A stretch of 62,453 bases of DNA, the filler included, from Rhabdomonas costata (taxonomy: Eukaryota): the NCBI GenBank assembly GCA_019059605.1. It is 28 parts of 28 records of this genome, joined end to end, with 100 filler letters (N's around TTAATTAATTAA, not from the genome) between each part and the next. Parts side by side here need not be neighbours in the genome. Positions count along the whole stretch, not along the records: positions 58,089 to 60,220 come from JAHMHO010005398.1; 27 more parts are not named here. The stretch is one strand, 5' to 3'. The notes beneath the pieces were generated by a model that saw only the letters and a list, made by a program, of their open reading frames with translations, was not told the DNA's origin and did no database searches. A program made the position numbers and the translations under genes. Positions 7,123 through 60,220 of this stretch are shown here, in pieces (within the stretch, counting starts at the first letter, position 1; each line of letters begins with the position of its first letter).

Positions 7123-9310
7123 CTGCGCAATCAAAAGAAGAAGCAATCAATGGAAGCAAGAGCTCTTTCGATACGAGAAGTCATTGATGCAAAACCTCAC
7201 GGAAACGCCAGTTTACGTGCTAGTTGTAGAATTCCTCTCGGCCAAAACACGACGAAACAGCTGCATCTTTCTGTATCACGCCTTGGATAGAAGTCCTGCA
7301 GGCAAGCCATTCCCAATGTGTGAAAACAAAAAGACTTGTAATTAAATCTGTTCACAAGAACAGACCCGCGTACAATGATCTGGAATGTGGGGGCTCTACC
7401 TGAAACCCGGCATCTGAAACCCGGACGTTTGGTCAAAAACCTGTAAAAACCACCACAAATTCAATTAAACCAATTAAAATCAGTCAAAACCACTGAAAAC
7501 CCACTCCAAACCATATACACCGACACCCAACTCCATTTCAGTTGCCACGGAGTGTTTGGTTGGAAGTTTGCGCCGAAGGAATAGTGGGTTGTTTTTTCTA
7601 TAAAGAAGTCCGCCACAGTGTGATAACTGCGCTGCTTTCACATTTGGCTGAAAAAGGCTTGTCGCAACAGTAATTATATACACGGTGTGATTGTTTGTAC
7701 AGCTTAGCATGTGCTGTTCTCCAGCCGCTGCCTGGCCTTGGCGCTTTGGGTCATCTTGGTGACGATGTGCACATAAAGACATGCACAAATACCATTGCCA
7801 CGTTACATGATGCCATATGAGAATAGAGCGCCATATTCTGAGAGGCCAATAACAATTGCCGTAGTTAGTCATCCGGATTACCTCTACCTCCACGCCATAA
7901 TATGGTTAAGCATCACGATATATTATACTGAGTGCGTATACACGTAGTAATACGCACATACATATCGTTCCACCAGTCACTCCGTCAGTCGCTCTGTATC
8001 ATAACGAGGCTGCTTTACGCCATAGCCTAGCATTCATCACGAGTTATTTTATCCTACGCCCTACTACGTAGGTTATCTTTCACGTGTCCTTAAAGAACCG
8101 CTACACTCGTATCTTCGGGCGTATCTGAAACCACATTGTCCCCATTAATACTCGATATTACTAGGATACCTTGGCTTTCTTCTGTTCACGTCAGTACTAG
8201 GTACAACAGCATCAGTGACATCCACACGGATACACGCGATATCCGGATGGAACACGAACACAAAAAAGAACATAAATAAATACACAAGCTAGAAATCCAC
8301 CAACATCAACCGCGCCACACACACATCATCTAATCTACCAACATCACCACCACACACAGCACCAACACTACCACCCAAATCGATGTAAACACGAGCCCCA
8401 GAATCAACCACTCCACTGACAACATGACCTGGAATACCACCATACTCCACGAGAAGACACCACAACAAATCCACCAACACCACACTATCTAGTACACCCA
8501 CCAACACCAATGTCATAGCTACAAACACACATCCATCACACAACTACGCCAGCAGCACCAACAGTGAGATAGACACACAACCTACGACACGTCAACGACC
8601 ATTGCACCAAACCAACCGATCACCATACACTCTACCAAACGAATATTGCACACACCAATCCTACCAACCTACGCACACAAACCACCATACTACACCCATT
8701 GCTACACTACACAAACAGAAACTATACAATATCACAATACCACAATGATACAAATCCACAAGAGAGAAACAAATCCAACACCTTAATGCAAACTTCGGAG
8801 TGCAAAGCCTGACATAAAAAACTTTGCACCATACAAAAAAACNNNNNNNNNNNNNNNNNNNNNNNNNNNNNNNNNNNNNNNNNNNNTTAATTAATTAANN
8901 NNNNNNNNNNNNNNNNNNNNNNNNNNNNNNNNNNNNNNNNNNTGGGTTGGTGTCACTAAGTTTTCACAGTCTTCGACCCACCTTTTCTGGTACGCTGTTC
9001 TCCTCTCTTAATCGCTGCATCTTTCCTGCTGCCACAGCTGACGTCGCCGCAACTGTTCTCCTCTCTGTCTCTCTCTCTCTTGCTCCCAGGTCTACTGCGC
9101 CTATTATTGTCCGTGGCGCCCCCGTGGAGTCCCACGCTTTCTCCGCTTTTTCCGTCTCTCGCGCCTCGGTCCATTCGATCCATTACCATCTCTCCTTTCA
9201 CTCAGGCCACTGGCTCCGATCCCCCCCCCCCTTCTATGGCTTTCTCCGCTCTCATTGCCATATCTGTCCCCCGCATACTTCACGTAATGCAATCAAAATG
9301 TACGGGAACA

Positions 9311-11078
9311 TTATGGGGGGGGGGGGGTACGGTAGACCCAGGTGAGAAGGTTCTTCGACGCCGATTCTCTCGTTCCACTGTTCCACTCGTTCCACTGATC
9401 GTGTGCGCATCCCATGATATGGTAGAGAGAGCAGAGCCAAAACAGGCAACGCAAAGAAAGTTGCACAGCATACTGCATAAAAAGCTCTGCTCCTGCATGA
9501 CTGATGCACACCACCGTACCAAACTGAAGACCAAAGCCCTCCGCTGCAGAATGAAAGATCGAAAACCTCCGGTCGTTACCGGGAATGGACAGGGTGTTGT
9601 GTACGGGGCAGAATTCCGCAGACGGCGTGCTTGATCTTGAGGAGCGAGATACCCTCAACGGGTTGGATGAGCTGTTATACTGGGAGGATGGATCTACCCG
9701 AGGTAGAGACTGTCCATTCTCGGGCGTCGCCACCTGGGATGGAAGAAAGTGCCGAAAGCGCGACAAGCTGACCACCATTCTAGCGAAGGCATGTTGGATG
9801 TCACCCAGCTCCAGAAAAATCGTGGATGACAGCTGCACGCCCTCCACTGCATCCCCGCAACCTTGGCCATCACTCGGGAGAGATGCCGCACAACGTGGAC
9901 AATCCGAAACACCACAAATGTGGTCAGCGCAAGGCAGCCCGCCAGGACACACCCAGCGACAGTGACAAACCCCACAACTGCAGAGCGGAGGCTGGATGTC
10001 GTTTCAACTGTTAGCTTGACTGTCGCGTCTGCACTGCTGGCAAGGTCACCCAGGGTATTCTGGAGGCTCTCTGTAATACTCATTAAGTCCTGACCCTGCA
10101 CCAAAACATTGGTCAGCTCCTCAGCAGCGGAGCTCACTCTTCCTTGGAACTCCATTTTCGGAGTCAGCTGGCAGGAAAGCCAGTGCAAGCCCCTGCGGTA
10201 GAACGCCAGTGTGCTGCACAAGTAAGCGGTGCCGTTCCACGTTGTTTCCGAATAACTTGTACTGACACTCTCCAGGGATCCAAACGAGGTCTTCAGCCCT
10301 GCCACGGCTGCTCGAAGCAAGTCGTTAGGAAACTCCTCTGCCGCGTAGGGCTCTAGAGAGTCATCGGTGCTACTAGTTGTGAACAGTGGGACTCCGGTGA
10401 AAGTATGGACAATCACACCATGGTTTCGCCCAAGGTCCACAACAAAGGCCACAGACAGCGGAGAGACCAGGCTGCGCTGAAGCGTAGTGCTCAGAAAGTC
10501 CATATCCAAATCAGCACCAAAAATCCCCGAAAGGCTGCCATTCTTGGTCGACAACCACCGAGAATAAAGCAGGGCAGGGGGCATCGCGTCTCCGTTGATG
10601 ACGTCAGAGTAAACATAGGAATACCACAACATCCCAGCAGTCTCAAGGATAGACAGCTGGTATTCTGTGTACATGTTAGAGGTTGCATTTTCGTCCTTCC
10701 ACAGGTAGTTTTGATATGTCACTTTTGGGTCGTCATCCCAATAAACGTATCGCCCATCGTTCCCCATTGCGTAAAATGTGTAATTGGGGGAGCTACCCCA
10801 CCCACAGTCGGTAAACACCTCCGCCACCTCGGGGTTTGGCTCGTCATAGTAGACATATTTGAAGAACGAAGGGAAGCCATGAACCTGCTCCAGAAACTGC
10901 ACCGCAAACGAAGCCAACGTCTGGTGCGGTGAGTTAATGTTGCATGACTTCAGAAAGCCCGTCTCCCAAGCCAAGTGCAAGGCGTCTGTGACACTCTCCG
11001 CAGCGTCCAACCGACTGCTTACGGCGTCACCCATCTGTTTCATGGCAATCGAGTGCACTTGAAGGACGACACCAACCC
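9311..11078 (-). CDS. Cache-like sensor + TM + HAMP-like receptor (receptor adenylate-cyclase-like architecture), 5'-partial, 1-nt frameshift near 9846
   Basis: ORF 9694-11058 has Cache-like motifs (WYSYVY...GIFGADLDMDFLSTTL...AFVVD...GLHWL) and a hydrophobic helix. The HAMP-like motif LSRVMAKVAGMQ continues in another frame as EGVQLS...ELGDIQHAFARMVVSLSRFRHFLP (ORF 9311-9952). Confidence 0.6.
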
Positions 11079-11216
11079 NNNNNNNNNNNNNNNNNNNNNN
11101 NNNNNNNNNNNNNNNNNNNNNNTTAATTAATTAANNNNNNNNNNNNNNNNNNNNNNNNNNNNNNNNNNNNNNNNNNNNCGATATTGTGTCTGCTGTGGTC
11201 TGTGTCGATTCCTTAG

Positions 11217-12076
11217 GTTTCTTTTGGATGGGCTGCATGAGGACCTGAACATGGTCACAGGGTCGGTGCCCTATAAGGAGCTGAAGGACATCCCGGGAGA
11301 GTCGGAAATGGTAGGGTGCACGGAGGGGGGTGGGGGTGGATTCAGTTGTGTGCTGATGGGGTGTGTGGCCTGTCATTGCACGAAACCTACCTCGAAATCC
11401 AATCTGCGCCACTATATGTCGATTGCTCTCCATGCTCCTCATCCCTCACCCCCCACCCGTGGGTTTTGTCGCTGACTGTGTTGTTTTGGAGTGCGCTGTG
11501 CAGTTTTCGGTGCCATTTCTTCACGCAGGAAGCGTGCTGAGGAAACCTCGCGGTGGGCTTCGGTTGGTTGCCACAATCCGAACGACATACACAAATTGAC
11601 ATCAGGCAGCCAATCGGACTACTACTTCAGGGAAAACGCGACGCGTAGGTCGAGGTACACCCCCACACACATGGACGCACGTACACGTAAAGACATGCAG
11701 GCATCTTCAACTGGGACGAGGCGGTTCTTAATTTGTCCCAGGAGAATTTCAAAGAACGCCGTAAGACCTGTGGTGAGTGTTTGTGTGGACGGGTGCGTGT
11801 TCAGGCGATGTCCCGGAGATGGTGGGATGTCCACAAGCAGCGCAACGACAGCTTCCTGATTGACCTGTTCTGTGGGCAGCTCCGCAGCGTGGTGACCTGT
11901 ATGCGGTGCTCGAACACCTCGAAGGCGTTCGACCCCTTCATGGACCTCAGCCTGATGATCCCCACGGGCTCTTCCTCCTCCGCCACCACCGGGCTGGCCT
12001 CCAGGACCGGTCCCGTTACTCTCGCCGACTGCCTGGATCGTTTTCTGCAGGAGGAGACCCTGATCAACACGGAGAG
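11217..12076 (+). CDS. Ubiquitin-specific protease (peptidase C19, USP2/8-like), partial; exons 11217-11310, 11805-12076
   Basis: FLLDGLHEDLN; SFLIDLFCGQLRSVVTCMRC...FDPFMDLSL...TLADCLDRFLQEETL; GT-AG intron keeps the frame. Confidence 0.9.
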
Positions 12077-52987: not shown

Positions 52988-53624
52988 TTTGGGAAGGGAG
53001 GATTCTCGCCGCGAGTTTCGTGAGAGCGGTGCACCGCTCATGTTCCTTCACCGTGTATTTCCCGATGCGCCACCTTCTTCATTTGTTCAGACTCAGCAAG
53101 GATTGTTTGAATTTCTGGCTGGTTGAGAAGATGGTGTCAAGTAAGTGTCCGACCAGCTTGTTTGCCAAAAAGACTTGTTTGTGAGGCTAATTGTTTTCAT
53201 GTCAGAGCTGAGTTTGTGTGTTTAGGGCTTCTTATTCGCATTAAACGTGGGAAAGAACAACATGGCCAATAACCTAAATACGAACTTAAACATTTATAAA
53301 ATGTGGTGAGCTTAGTTATAACGCAATGGGCAGCTTTGTTAGTTTTGTCAAACGGCCGCTTCAGTCCCTTCAGTCCCAACGGTCAATCATCATTTTTTTC
53401 TTCTGATTTTCTACCTTACCCACTATCCATTGCTCTGCTCCACGCCTTAATTCGTTCATTGCTGAGCAATCATTTGAGGTGGTATTCCCACAACGTACAC
53501 CCCAAACCAACCACACCCAACACCNNNNNNNNNNNNNNNNNNNNNNNNNNNNNNNNNNNNNNNNNNNNTTAATTAATTAANNNNNNNNNNNNNNNNNNNN
53601 NNNNNNNNNNNNNNNNNNNNNNNN

Positions 53625-55423
53625 GTGTGGGGTGCAGCCGCTGCAGGCACCGCAGCCGGCGGGTCTCCAGCACAGCCGCGCCGCGGCCGCCGAACTCGTG
53701 GTCGAGCTTCAAGACCCACTGCGCCACTCCGGGGTATGCCACAACGTGGTGCGCCAGCGCGGACAGGGCGTCCTCCTCGGAGCGCAGGTCGTGTGCTCCT
53801 AGGGGGGTCTCAATCTGGAAAGGTGTGTGCATCCATTTGTGTGAGTGTTTCAAAATCAATTGAGATCTCTCTGTGTGTGTGGGACAGAGTGAGATTAATC
53901 TCCCAAACCACCCACCCTGCCACAAAGCACACCAAGGGTTTCCAGTCGGTTGGCCGCATTGAGCGGACTGAGTATTTTTCTTTGACACAATCCAAACAAA
54001 GCCCCGAAGCTTACCATCTAAACAGACACACACACACATTGAGCTGAAGGGTGAGTGTGAAGGGTAAACACTGGTACGATGCATTGTTTTTTTTAGTGGT
54101 GTTAAACGGTTAGAATAGCATATTACAAATACAAACATACACAGAAGGCCACAAGACTGGTGTGAGGGATGACTCCAAGAAGGCGCAGTGCGAGATAAAG
54201 ACGCGCACGGGCTGTCTGCATTGATCCACGGTACGGTGTGTGCATCACGAAAACACACACACACACACACGTTGCTGTGCGCGGAAGTAAGTTCCCACAA
54301 AAAACGTCAGGCCAGGCTCTGAACTTGACGGCCGTGTCTTCGTAGCCATCAATCTCTCTCCAGAGTGCATTAAATTTCGCCTTTCCCCCTTCTCTTCCTC
54401 AGAACCTTGGCCGCCAGAAAGATTCGCTTGGCCCCGGACTTCGTGGCGAAGGCCGGAGCAGTGGTGGGGTCGGGCCCTAGCACAGGCAATCCCAGGTGCA
54501 GCGCCAGAAGACGGTCTTCGGGGCCCACAAGCCCTGCCAATCAAAACCCAGCAGTGCCCGAACACGCTATAACGTCAGCAGCGCAGCATCTACATATACA
54601 CAAGCCAAAAAACAGGCTATTGCCATTGCCACACTCCAGCTGCATCTCGGCTGTTGGTAGTTGGGGAGAATTCCCTCAACAACAGCGGCGGGTGAGCCGC
54701 AAACTCGACCTGGCTGAACCTGCACCTCGACCTGGTTGGCTCCCTTCACATGCATACCAAGTATTCGTACACACGAGCGGAAGATGAGAGGCTTCACACC
54801 CCATTTGACGCAAGCCGCGAAAACCGCAAAAAATGTCTACCGTCGCTCCATCCCACATCATACCCTCTACAAAGGTAGCATTCTGATATCTAAGTGCGTG
54901 TGCGTGTGATTTGGACGCGTAGCGCGCTGGCGTTTGCGTGACTGGCCGTTGGTGACCGCTGTTAACTGATGGGCGCGCGCGCATTTTTGGCCACAAGTTG
55001 CTCGTGAGAGGCACCTTCGCAGGGTGGGGACCAGCTCACCGCAGTGCGTTCCACATGTGATAACCACCTTCTGCCCCACGGGTCCCGGGTCTTTGCCGAG
55101 CAACAACCTATTTCCTCTACCCCCTGCATCTCCTCTGCCTTAGGGGTTGCCCAGATGGAGGGACTCAGGTCACGTCTCCGCAGACACAGGTGGACCACTG
55201 ATCTCACAAATTTTCGTGGCGCGTGGGGTGGAGGGCACGTGCGCGCACCTGGAACGATGTAGGCGGGGTTGCCGCGGGCCCTGACCTCCTTGGCGACACG
55301 GCGGAGCATCCGTGGGCTCCACAGCGCGGCCTTGGTGAGGCTAAGCGGCGCCGCGAAGACCCCACTGTGGTTCTCGGGGTGTACCACGACCAGCCGCCGC
55401 TCCACCTCCGGCACCCCACACGA
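53625..55423 (-). CDS. IQCH: IQCH-like protein (ATP-grasp-like region), partial; exons 55249-55423, 54406-54533, 53625-53814
   Basis: WSPRMLRRV...AYIVP|G...D..LA..LGLPVLGPDP...TKSGAKRIF...|...P.GAHD...WVLKLDHEFGGRGAA, collinear with IQCH. Confidence 0.85.
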
Positions 55424-58088: not shown

Positions 58089-60220
58089 GGTTGTGTGGGA
58101 TCTGTTCTTCACGAAAGCAACGAAAGTCCGCGATCTCGATGGGTTTTCCATTACCATTGACCAGGGGCCAGCTGATAATAGAAAACCCATCGAGATCGCG
58201 GACTTTCGTTGCTTTCGTGAAGAACAGATCCCACTCAAGCCCTTTCAGTGGCAGCTGCCCAACCGCAGCCTGCAGGCTAAACCCAATCGGGCGGTGAAAA
58301 ACCTCCCAAAGCTCCTCGTCAGCTACCTCCTTCCATGCTTCGCCGCTGCCTTTCCTTCCATCCGGACCCCTCTCCCTTTTCAAGGGCAGCAGGCTGTGCG
58401 CGAACTTCTTCAGGTCTTCTGGTAACGCAGGCGAGGCATGAGACAGCGGAAACAGCACCAGTTTCCATGGCAACCTGTGCGCATCGTCCTCATGCTTGGC
58501 CAGAATGCATTGATCACCTCCGGCTTCCCTCCCTGCAAGTGCGCATGCCGGAGCGACATCGTTGGCCATCCAGCAATACTTAAGGAGCAACAAGAGGCTC
58601 ATGGGGCCGAACACCCAACCAAGCTTCGGGGGAGCTGCGCCGCGGCTGTCTGATGGCGCCACCTGAGGGCCCAACGTGGCAGCCTCGTAGAACACATTGT
58701 CTTCGGAGTGAAGGGGGCGGAGAAGGGACCAGCATGCCGAACCGCACCATTGCATAACTTGCGAGCAGTCCCGGGGCCCAAGTAAAACTTTCGGCTCCAT
58801 TGTGCTGTCGGTGCTAGTTGGCTTGCTAGAGAGAATCTCGAGCGTGGCCTTCTTAACTTTGTCACCGAGTTTTCGAATGTTTTCGCTTTCTGGGAAAATT
58901 GCCTTAATAGGAGTGAAAAACCACCGCGTCCTTTTGTCATCATCGACATTGTAAGGAAGGTCGGGGCCAACCGGAATTCCTTCAGGAATATCAACGGCCT
59001 TCCACTTGCGCAGGAGCGCGATGTGTGCTTTGCATCGGCACTCGAAAGAGCTGAAGCGGTTTCGGTACTGCTCATAGAGCTGATGAGAAACAAAGCTCTT
59101 CATGGCAAAGGAGTCTGGGGTATGGAATTGCAGCTCGAAAGTAAAATGCCTGTCATCGGGAAGCTTGACAGCAACGAAGCCATTGACCCCCATGTATATT
59201 GCATCTTGAGCCCAATAGCTGTATAGCTTCGGATTTGGCACGTCGCCCTCCTCCCCATTGAACAATTCAAGACCCGTATTCTCGTCTTTAAGAGCCCGAC
59301 TGAAGTTCTCTGCGAAGCTGCTGGCAAACGCCTTATAAGTTTTGAAGGGAACCACAATCGTGTACCGAAGTACATCGTCAACCTCGTGTGTAACCTGATC
59401 TATATGGGGCACATAGGTAGCGATGTTGTTGTGTAGGTTCAACAGCTGCTGAAGCCTTCGGAATAACTTGTCAGACAACGAGTCCCTTGTTTTCAGCCTG
59501 CTCTTGAGACCTTCCAAGCGACCACCCCAACTCGCAGCAACTCGGGAGAGGACCGGGGTTACAATCGCTTCCACTTGAGAGGCAGTCTCAAGCATGCGGC
59601 TCACAACGTCCTTTCCGAGTTCGCTCGCAACCTTCGCCGCTGCGGCTGCATTCGAGTCAAACCATTTCACGCCAGCTCGCTCCTTAAGCAGACCCTGGTG
59701 CTGCAGCACTGCTGTAGCAGCCTGCTGGTGGTTGTACAAACAACTGAAGACGCGGCGGAGTGTGGGGTAGTGTCCTTGTGCGAACCACTCTGGCTCAGCC
59801 CTGGCCGACAGAACCTCCTGAATGAACCACCCAAAGGACCACGTGAGGCCCCAACGAAAAACTACTAGCGCGTCAGGCTCCACCAAGGTGGCGAGGAGCT
59901 CGCGAACGAGCACCAGGCAGGAAAGAGCCTTGAGATCCCTCTCATCAGCCGCCTGAGGATTCGAAAGTATCCCTCGGTCGAGCTCTATCTTTTCGTCGAA
60001 AGCCTTCACAATGTCTTTCACTGTGAGCGCTGAAGTAGGGTCTTCGGTTGCTGTGTAGTTGTTTTCGGGGTTCTTCTTTCCAGGCACCAGCTGTCTTTTT
60101 TGACTGAAGGCCTTGGGACCTTTCCTTGCCGGGGAGAAGACACTGAACGCAGAATGCCACAAGAGGGTAATCCCGACCACGGTGCCCGAAAGTTTGATGC
60201 TCTTCATTGACCCACCAACA
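58089..60220 (-). CDS. Intronless ORF of over 700 codons, 3'-partial, with a RelA/SpoT-like nucleotide pyrophosphokinase domain (Tas1/Apk2/XopAD type) at approx. 58975-59600
   Basis: ASQVEAIVTPVL...GGRLEGLKSRLKTRDSLSDKL...DDVLRYT...YW...YMGVN...FELQFHTPDSFAMK...SHQLYEQYR...VDIPEG. Confidence 0.85.

Follow-up and report, generated by a model that had tools for sequence, protein, structure and literature searches.

The window analysed here is a stretch of 62,453 nucleotides from the assembly GCA_019059605.1 of Rhabdomonas costata (Eukaryota), in which 28 unrelated contigs of ~2.13 kb are joined by spacers of the form N44-TTAATTAATTAA-N44, and contigs that are neighbours in the window are not neighbours in the genome. 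One of them (JAHMHO010005398.1, positions 58,089 to 60,220) encodes on its minus strand a fragment of a large protein with a RelA/SpoT-homologue (RSH) synthetase domain, which is placed by its motifs, profile matches and predicted structure in the branch of the toxin Apk1 (Tas1) and of SaEAS. An original prediction, made from the sequence alone, had described a bacterial toxin-type (p)ppApp-synthetase-like domain between unrecognised flanks in an intronless protein, and had proposed an anti-prey or anti-competitor toxin, an infection-triggered suicide effector or a new second-messenger system. In our analysis, the domain appears as the middle part of a three-domain architecture (N-Syn-C), where the synthetase (Syn) stands between an N-terminal (N) domain resembling NTPDases and PPX/GppA proteins and a C-terminal (C) domain. 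The features assigned to the contig, with residues counted from the ATG at 60207, are:

58089..60220, minus strand: the whole contig (2132 bp), a single stop-free frame open at both ends, being an internal piece of a larger gene
59800..60219, minus strand: last third of the family N domain, residues 1-136 plus four codons upstream of the ATG, with the conserved TWSxGW motif (hhalign)
59641..59799, minus strand: low-confidence helical linker, residues 137-189 (predicted local distance difference test score, pLDDT, of 38-48 over residues 121-180; poorly aligned in the family alignment A1)
58969..59640, minus strand: RSH synthetase domain of the Apk1(Tas1)/SaEAS branch, residues ~190-413 (model, profile and NCBIfam matches)
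59467..59499, minus strand: RLKTRDSLSDK, residues 237-247, basic nucleotide-binding motif with K239, S243 and K247 near-invariant
59359..59376, minus strand: DVLRYT, residues 278-283, with D278 in the column of SaEAS D121
59182..59196, minus strand: YMGVN, residues 338-342
59119..59139, minus strand: FELQFHT, residues 357-363, with E358, Q360, H362 and T363 near-invariant
58159..58947, minus strand: C-terminal region, residues 421-683, with several insertions, collinear with the ~230-aa C domain of relatives
58091..58238, no strand: terminal fold-back with two 66-nt arms (58091-58156 and 58173-58238), 95% reverse complementary, around a 16-nt loop

Starting at the ATG at 60207, the minus-strand frame continues for 706 residues without a stop until it meets the contig edge at 58089, and it stays open through the four codons upstream of this ATG, up to the other contig edge. 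Since the frame is open at both ends, the open reading frame (ORF) is a fragment, and the parent protein would be larger than 900 aa. The description as intronless thus holds for these 2.1 kb and does not extend to the rest of the gene, and the ORF may contain retained in-frame introns. An in-frame GT...AG interval at ~60030-60143 was considered as an intron and dropped, as its removal would take away conserved alignment columns. Given that the outer arm of the terminal fold-back (58091-58156) encodes the last ~23 residues of the ORF, those residues are probably artefactual. Apart from the palindromes of the spacers, this fold-back is the sole inverted repeat among the 25 listed of the 28 pairs in the window. 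A scan of the whole window against Rfam gave no family.

By profile and structure matches, the central domain is a genuine RSH synthetase and belongs to the Apk1/EAS branch. All of the synthetase motifs that had been read from the sequence were found, in the expected order, and besides those given above they include HQLYE (375-379), EAIVTPVL...GGRLEGL (213-233) and IPEG. In an alignment of 149 sequences, the window protein keeps 22 of 22 near-invariant family columns, and K239, S243, K247, D278, R281, Y282, E358, Q360 and H362 are all retained at such columns. At the position where the family and the window protein (D278) have Asp, the crystallised 8VX3 chain shows Ala in the profile alignment; this chain is the D121A mutant of SaEAS, a change that inactivates the enzyme (PMC12691689). 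The synthetase domain is complete and, judging from these residues, apparently active.

The NCBIfam XopAD model NF041399 matches window residues 162-410 (E 7.5e-17), the match spanning only model positions 1910-2125 of 2133 and scoring 59.9 bits against a cut-off of 2000. A HMMER search of 1.84 billion representatives recovered 774 relatives at E<=1e-3, 54 of them at <=1e-10 and none at <=1e-30, all matching within window residues ~56-430; the best was P0003 (E 5.1e-29, 35% identity). Such matches go well past coincidence. When the profile of the closest family was run against the PDB, 8VX3 (SaEAS) was recovered at E 3e-22, with no further RSH chain at E<=10. 8VX3 came within reach of the family profile alone. 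With the single window protein, the search of PDB sequences returned nothing (best E 0.6) and a word-indexed homologue search returned one match only; neither the window protein nor the family profile led to Tas1 in a sequence search. Pfam gave on this protein only a chance Apolipoprotein match (E 0.078), with no match to the RelA_SpoT model, and the ESM Atlas was uninformative, returning only unnamed bacterial clusters with a top score of 0.90 and recognition below threshold.

In the AlphaFold (AF2) model of the window protein, confidence is high at residues ~190-410 (pLDDT mostly >90) and low in the rest, with a mean over the protein of 64.5. The closest structural match to the model is 8vx3 (Z 16.7, root-mean-square deviation 2.8, 193 residues aligned), followed by Tas1 6ox6 (Z 12.2, 166 aligned, 20% identity), RelP 6ewz (Z 12.0), SAS1 5dec (Z 11.3), CapRel 7ztb (Z 10.0), Rel/SpoT (Z 8.0-8.5) and FaRel (Z 7.1), while unrelated folds reach Z <=7.3. 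Foldseek, with a probability of 1.00, gave E 9e-9 for 8vx3, 4.4e-5 for 6ox6 and 1.6e-5 for CapRel 7ztb. Both the comparison with Tas1 and RelP and the agreement between NCBIfam, profile and structure matches bear out the proposal of an RSH synthetase fold of the Apk1(Tas1)/XopAD C-terminal kind with its catalytic motifs intact.

The N-terminal flank, which the original prediction had left unrecognised, can now be assigned as the tail of an NTPDase/PPX-GppA-like domain. In an hhalign comparison with family profile A2, window residues 4-136 correspond to 231-338 of the relative P0005 (probability 94.8%, E 5.1e-8). In relatives the full N domain is ~340 residues long, and its first ~230 residues lie beyond the contig end. 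Modelling of P0005 (860 aa, AlphaFold, mean pLDDT 84.1) indicates an NTPDase/PPX-GppA (ASKHA) fold for the N domain as it occurs in full-length relatives, since model residues ~50-349 match NTPDase1 3zx0 (Z 21.3), Helicobacter pylori PPX/GppA 6pc0 (Z 21.3) and Escherichia coli GppA 6pbz (Z 20.6), with identities to this fold of 10-18%. Other ASKHA proteins reach only Z ~10, and Foldseek matches to NTPDase/PPX-GppA proteins are at E ~1e-10. The family consensus also contains apyrase-like motifs resembling apyrase conserved regions (ACR) 1-4: VVDCGTGETK, ASAWxR, EEAWxE and AxGxGSTQ. The Pfam Ppx-GppA and GDA1_CD39 models gave no match to the family N domains.

The C-terminal part of the window protein resembles the C domain of the relatives only weakly. 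A phmmer search with it gave no match below E 0.8 among 159 proteins, nothing in the search of 1.84 billion representatives matches it, and its pLDDT is mostly <60. The order of secondary-structure elements in this part is similar in the window and P0005 models, which share an alignment. The C domain of the relatives has no match in Pfam, NCBIfam or PDB sequences, and whole-model structure searches are dominated by the N domain and barely probe the other parts.

The best relatives reach past the synthetase: among these 159 proteins, 23 carry the shared N and/or C domain around it, and all three domains are present in 11. A FastTree phylogeny of the synthetase domain was computed on 198 columns for 147 sequences of the 149, after removal of two that covered <140 residues of the region. 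In it, all N-domain-bearing proteins fall into one clade of 35 tips with a support of 0.94, with the window protein inside it; the toxin and phage forms that have the synthetase only lie apart. Among the latter, the synthetase-only relative P0002 carries WXG100 and a papain-fold toxin, P0007 combines a phage MuF domain with two tandem synthetase domains and an ADP-ribosyltransferase, and P0018 also has MuF and an ADP-ribosyltransferase; another synthetase-only relative, encoded at L139:1-2217, has a C-terminal NAD:arginine ADP-ribosyltransferase.

Two independent observations link the clade to alarmone turnover. An extra N-terminal HD domain is found in eight proteins (P0010, P0156 and P0162-P0167), with matches to 7SMG, a (p)ppApp hydrolase (E 2.7e-13), and to MESH1 (E 2.4e-6). 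These proteins, together with L001:5518-6000 (plus strand), are bacterial members in which an Aph1-like HD domain, the NTPDase-like domain, the synthetase and the C domain follow each other in one polypeptide; such four-domain proteins are possible bifunctional "Rel-like" (p)ppApp enzymes, as far as the sequences go. On a bacterial 106-kb contig, a divergent small alarmone hydrolase (L119:8470-9201, minus strand; Pfam HD_4 E 3.7e-9, PDB 6YVC E 2.8e-31) adjoins the three-domain gene at 9290-11818. Overall, an Aph1-like HD stretch is present in 19 of the 187 homologue loci.

A Pfam scan of nine relatives with the three-domain form (P0004, P0005, P0010, P0011, P0013, P0015, P0016, P0019 and P0033) turned up neither Sec, WXG, Rhs or MuF domains nor XopAD repeats, and no export signal was seen in the full-length relatives (Pfam, with no dedicated signal-peptide predictor). 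On the contig itself, from which the N-terminus of the protein is missing, there is no Sec signal, WXG/LXG, XopAD repeats, MuF, DUF4157 or Rhs/PAAR module. PADLOC returned no defence-system match for seven of seven proteins, and no secretion system adjoins the family gene in the neighbourhoods L001, L115 and L119.

The position of the window protein within the clade was examined with IQ-TREE (LG+G4, 1000 ultrafast bootstraps, UFboot; 46 sequences and 199 columns), using 34 of the 35 clade members and 12 neighbours after dropping the 168-aa fragment P0089. The window protein pairs with P0032, a protein from the foraminifer Bolivina argentea in EukProt (UFboot 94; 36% identity over 156 residues), and the remaining N-Syn-C members form the sister group of these two (UFboot 96). 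The window protein and P0032 share an insertion before YxGxN that is absent from the other 11 aligned sequences. The known bacterial three-domain members form a nested subclade within a grade of eukaryote-like sequences. The tree is unrooted apart from the chosen outgroup. A horizontal acquisition, as originally suggested, is plausible, but transfer may have run either way between bacteria and eukaryotes, given that the bacterial members nest within the eukaryote-like grade.

In bacteria, three-domain members are real but rare. In a data set of one genome per species (185,579 species), 33 loci were confirmed, and only one of them, on a 98-kb contig of a Flavipsychrobacter metagenome-assembled genome (L001), matched over residues 2-839, with the match in the others limited to the synthetase region. 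P0161, a protein from Paraburkholderia caribensis, shares 88% identity with P0005, and in JGI metagenomes 7 of 74 loci extend into the N domain. Viral contigs contain 280 synthetase relatives, and none of the best 80 matches the query before residue 278 or beyond residue 617. A giant-virus origin of the three-domain form was also considered and is unsupported, as no N or C domain is present in those best 80 of 280.

On the eukaryotic side, the 90% cluster of the N-Syn-C protein P0065 (1024 aa) includes a Trinity transcript of Euglena mutabilis. P0025 carries EF-hands, and a metagenomic locus (L121:101-4405, plus strand) encodes a protein of 1435 aa with ankyrin (ANK) repeats, the synthetase, several EF-hands, EH and GYF, an architecture that, judged from its domains, is plainly eukaryotic. 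Further relatives lie on contigs sharing the name prefix of L121 (L114, L122, L126, L164, L181 and L182). Two short gene calls, P0069 and P0082, are 54% identical to window residues 220-286 and turn into arginine-rich nonsense after RYTIV, resembling read-through at a eukaryotic exon-intron boundary.

The contigs around the one of interest agree with the earlier attribution of the window to a protist assembly. Their coding density is low, and of ten long ORFs taken from other contigs one matched Pfam, an IQCH-like ATP-grasp. This ORF fragment (window 53569-54300, minus strand) matches PF24923 (E 1.9e-9), a family that is cilium-associated and eukaryotic by name. A 454-aa Cache/PDC-sensor-like ORF (window 9694-11058, minus strand) has its best matches in EukProt, with 48-57% identity and several paralogues. 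For the contig itself, the observed/expected (o/e) ratio of CpG is 0.80, within the range of the other 27 contigs (0.61-0.90) and unlike that of 14 homologue loci (0.99-1.24). GC content at third codon positions (GC3) is 0.62 versus 0.54-0.69 in four other window ORFs, and the relative synonymous codon usage (RSCU) correlates with r 0.65 with these four ORFs pooled, of which only the Cache ORF is verified as a gene, versus -0.43 to 0.54 with eight homologue genes. The other 27 contigs were searched for the missing N-terminal part, the HD hydrolase and the C domain, and nothing was found (best E 0.097). Taken together, a host origin is favoured, not proven, and we put the chances of a eukaryotic origin of the contig at roughly two in three.

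The nature of the product has to be considered with care. In the Apk1/EAS clade, VpEAS and AaEAS make (p)ppGpp only, SaEAS makes (p)ppGpp as well as (p)ppApp, and Apk1 and Apk2 make (p)ppApp only (PMC12691689). As the same motif set is common to all of these, the product is not callable from motifs; the DxLRYT/YxGxN/ELQFHT combination, which the original prediction had taken to set the (p)ppApp-making toxins and the XopAD/RipS domains apart from housekeeping RSH enzymes, marks the clade and not its specificity. The fused hydrolase of the relatives is nearer to the (p)ppApp hydrolase 7SMG than to MESH1, so there is a slight tilt towards (p)ppApp. This likeness, seen in relatives, is only a hint that (p)ppApp may be the product.

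With a probability of roughly 0.55, we read the locus as encoding a host, multidomain, regulated intracellular nucleotide pyrophosphokinase (or a controlled ATP-draining enzyme) and not an exported toxin. The order of its parts would be an NTPDase/PPX-GppA-like tail, a helical linker, a complete RSH pyrophosphokinase domain and a divergent C-terminal region. Within the cell that produces it, the synthetase would transfer the beta,gamma-pyrophosphate of ATP to a purine nucleotide at its 3'-OH, yielding (p)ppApp and/or (p)ppGpp; the phosphatase-like neighbouring domain might trim or sense 5' phosphates of the substrate or product, as GppA does with pppGpp, and the C domain might regulate the enzyme. 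The gene would belong to the eukaryote of the assembly, in agreement with a nearest relative that is a foraminiferal transcript. Since the hydrolase is fused in eight proteins and adjacent at one locus, and Pfam showed no delivery domain in nine relatives of the three-domain form, the protein looks like a self-contained, regulated enzyme.

A number of observations speak against this interpretation. The catalytic two-thirds of the N domain lie off the contig, and in the relatives the ACR4-like motif AxGxGSTQ is without the Asp usual in canonical enzymes, so that the N domain may bind rather than hydrolyse. The match of the C region to the family C domain, although in the expected place, is not significant (hhalign against A2, probability 0.7%, E 0.079). 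The foraminiferal relative P0032 is a partial transcriptome sequence of 323 aa and itself possibly contaminated. The Euglena member (P0188/P0065 cluster) has degenerate synthetase motifs (EVHVHT for ELQFHT, HFGVT for YxGxN) and, on this basis, may be inactive or altered in function; thus, not every eukaryotic member need be active. Other observations concern the origin of the contig and lead to the explanation that its source is a bacterium or some other organism in the culture and that it is uninformative on eukaryotic biology, which we consider unlikely, though a serious contender. The same N-Syn-C architecture occurs in true bacteria, on genuine bacterial contigs (L001 of 98 kb, L119 of 106 kb) and in Paraburkholderia caribensis (P0161). 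Within the window, this is the only fully coding contig, with a stop-free frame of 710 aa versus <=489 aa among the other 27; its dinucleotide distance from the remaining window amounts to 97 (rank 26 of 28, range 21-159), which overlaps the 81-200 of the homologue loci and is not decisive as a host test; and a terminal fold-back is found on it alone (among the listed pairs). As the original prediction had already conceded in calling a host origin unproven, the contig carries only this ORF, with no flanking DNA joining it to the host. Against contamination stand the foraminiferal pairing, which places the window protein outside the subclade of known bacterial members, the lineage-specific insertion shared with P0032, and several long low-confidence insertions missing from the bacterial members. 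Moreover, the CpG ratio fits the assembly, unlike the homologue loci, codon usage is nearest to the window's own ORFs, and no relative of >40% identity was found in any collection searched.

A delivered toxin, or a suicide effector triggered by infection, that kills like Apk1/Tas1 by draining ATP/ADP into (p)ppApp seems improbable to us, even though characterised members of the Apk1/EAS branch are toxic when active in the cytoplasm (PMC12691689), many synthetase-only relatives stand in phage or polymorphic-toxin contexts (P0002, P0007, P0018), and the Aph1-like HD stretches, where they occur in synthetase-only loci, fit toxin-immunity pairs. However, the window protein falls into the distinct clade of ASKHA-synthetase fusions (0.94), the nine scanned relatives carry no export or delivery domain, PADLOC gave no defence match, and a hydrolase within the same polypeptide, as in some members, fits regulation rather than delivery. 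Delivery as a toxin is thus the least supported reading and, of the three originally proposed, the anti-prey or anti-competitor role is the weakest, whereas the suicide-effector version differs from the favoured reading only in the outcome of activation. It is also conceivable, at quite low odds, that the domain pyrophosphorylates another acceptor, e.g., the 3' end of a tRNA (as CapRel and FaRel2 do) or a nucleotide cofactor. CapRel 7ztb is among the structural matches and acceptor specificity in the superfamily is unreadable from shared motifs (PMC12691689), but the model is nearer to the nucleotide-acceptor enzymes SaEAS (16.7) and Tas1 (12.2) than to CapRel (10.0) and FaRel (7.1), and, where hydrolases of (p)ppApp or small alarmones are fused to the synthetase or lie next to it, free nucleotides are the likelier products.

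Among known systems, E. coli GppA acts on pppGpp, and GppA/PPX and the GDA1/CD39 NTPDases share their fold with the N domain of the relatives (Z 20.6-21.3), of which the window has the last third only. With Rel/SpoT and the RSH enzymes of plants and algae the window protein shares the logic of a synthetase within a multidomain, presumably regulated cytoplasmic protein, and some clade members show Rel-like additions, either an N-terminal HD hydrolase or EF-hands; CRSH is a Ca2+-regulated RSH of plants and algae. In contrast to Rel/SpoT, however, the synthetase is from another branch, there is no TGS or ACT domain, and the partner has an ASKHA phosphatase fold. SaEAS is the best match by profile and structure, with the same motif set including the Asp of the inactivating mutation, but the identity is ~21-22%, and SaEAS is a Sec-exported single domain of ~250 aa whereas the window protein is multidomain. 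In XopAD/RipS, type III effectors of plant pathogens, the C-terminal ~200 residues are the same domain, preceded by ~1900 residues of SKWP repeats, of which the window protein has none. Apk1/Tas1 (6OX6), the toxin of Pseudomonas aeruginosa's type VI secretion system (T6SS), has the same fold and motif variant; a counterpart to its PAAR/Rhs-type N-terminus or to Tis1 was not found on the contig, which holds one ORF with the N-terminus off its end. Tas1 is delivered by the T6SS via that N-terminus and neutralised by the immunity protein Tis1, and SaEAS is an exported small alarmone synthetase of Streptomyces albidoflavus (PMC12691689).

The synthetase domain is of a known kind, and what would be new is the ASKHA-fused three-domain architecture together with its eukaryotic members. 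A survey from 2025 counted 1,369 Apk1 homologues in bacteria and lists as accessory modules the Sec signal, WXG/LXG, XopAD, MuF, DUF4157 and Rhs/PAAR (PMC12691689). The three-domain architecture is not in its module section, and the string "eukaryot" is absent from its main text, while its supplements may include members (PMC12691689). A literature search, covering few subscription journals, retrieved nothing on a synthetase of the Apk1/EAS type that is eukaryotic or fused to an NTPDase/PPX domain.

To our knowledge, the eukaryotic alarmone synthetases known so far are plastid-type RSH enzymes of plants and algae, and we know of no explanation for the synthetase side in animals. If our reading is true, a second, unrelated RSH synthetase branch in protists would be a concrete candidate for how eukaryotes make alarmones by a non-plastid route, and some non-plant eukaryotes might themselves make these stress nucleotides. 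A family now seen as toxins would also gain a new architecture that is apparently regulated, the Apk1/EAS branch being known so far only from bacterial toxins and exported enzymes; the fusion with an Aph1-like hydrolase in some members suggests a "Rel-like" bifunctional (p)ppApp enzyme. More speculatively, heterotrophic and mixotrophic protists, such as foraminifera, euglenids and others known from marine metagenomes, might own a cytosolic, non-plastid alarmone system, built from Apk1/EAS synthetases with an NTPDase/GppA-like domain and from variants with Ca2+-sensing EF-hands and with the adaptor domains ANK, EH and GYF, which would use (p)ppApp/(p)ppGpp as a second messenger and of which the rare bacterial three-domain genes would be offshoots and not the source; we regard this wider view as doubtful at present.

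Elsewhere in the window, a second overlapping frame (9311-10003) lies near the Cache ORF and suggests an intron or a frameshift there.

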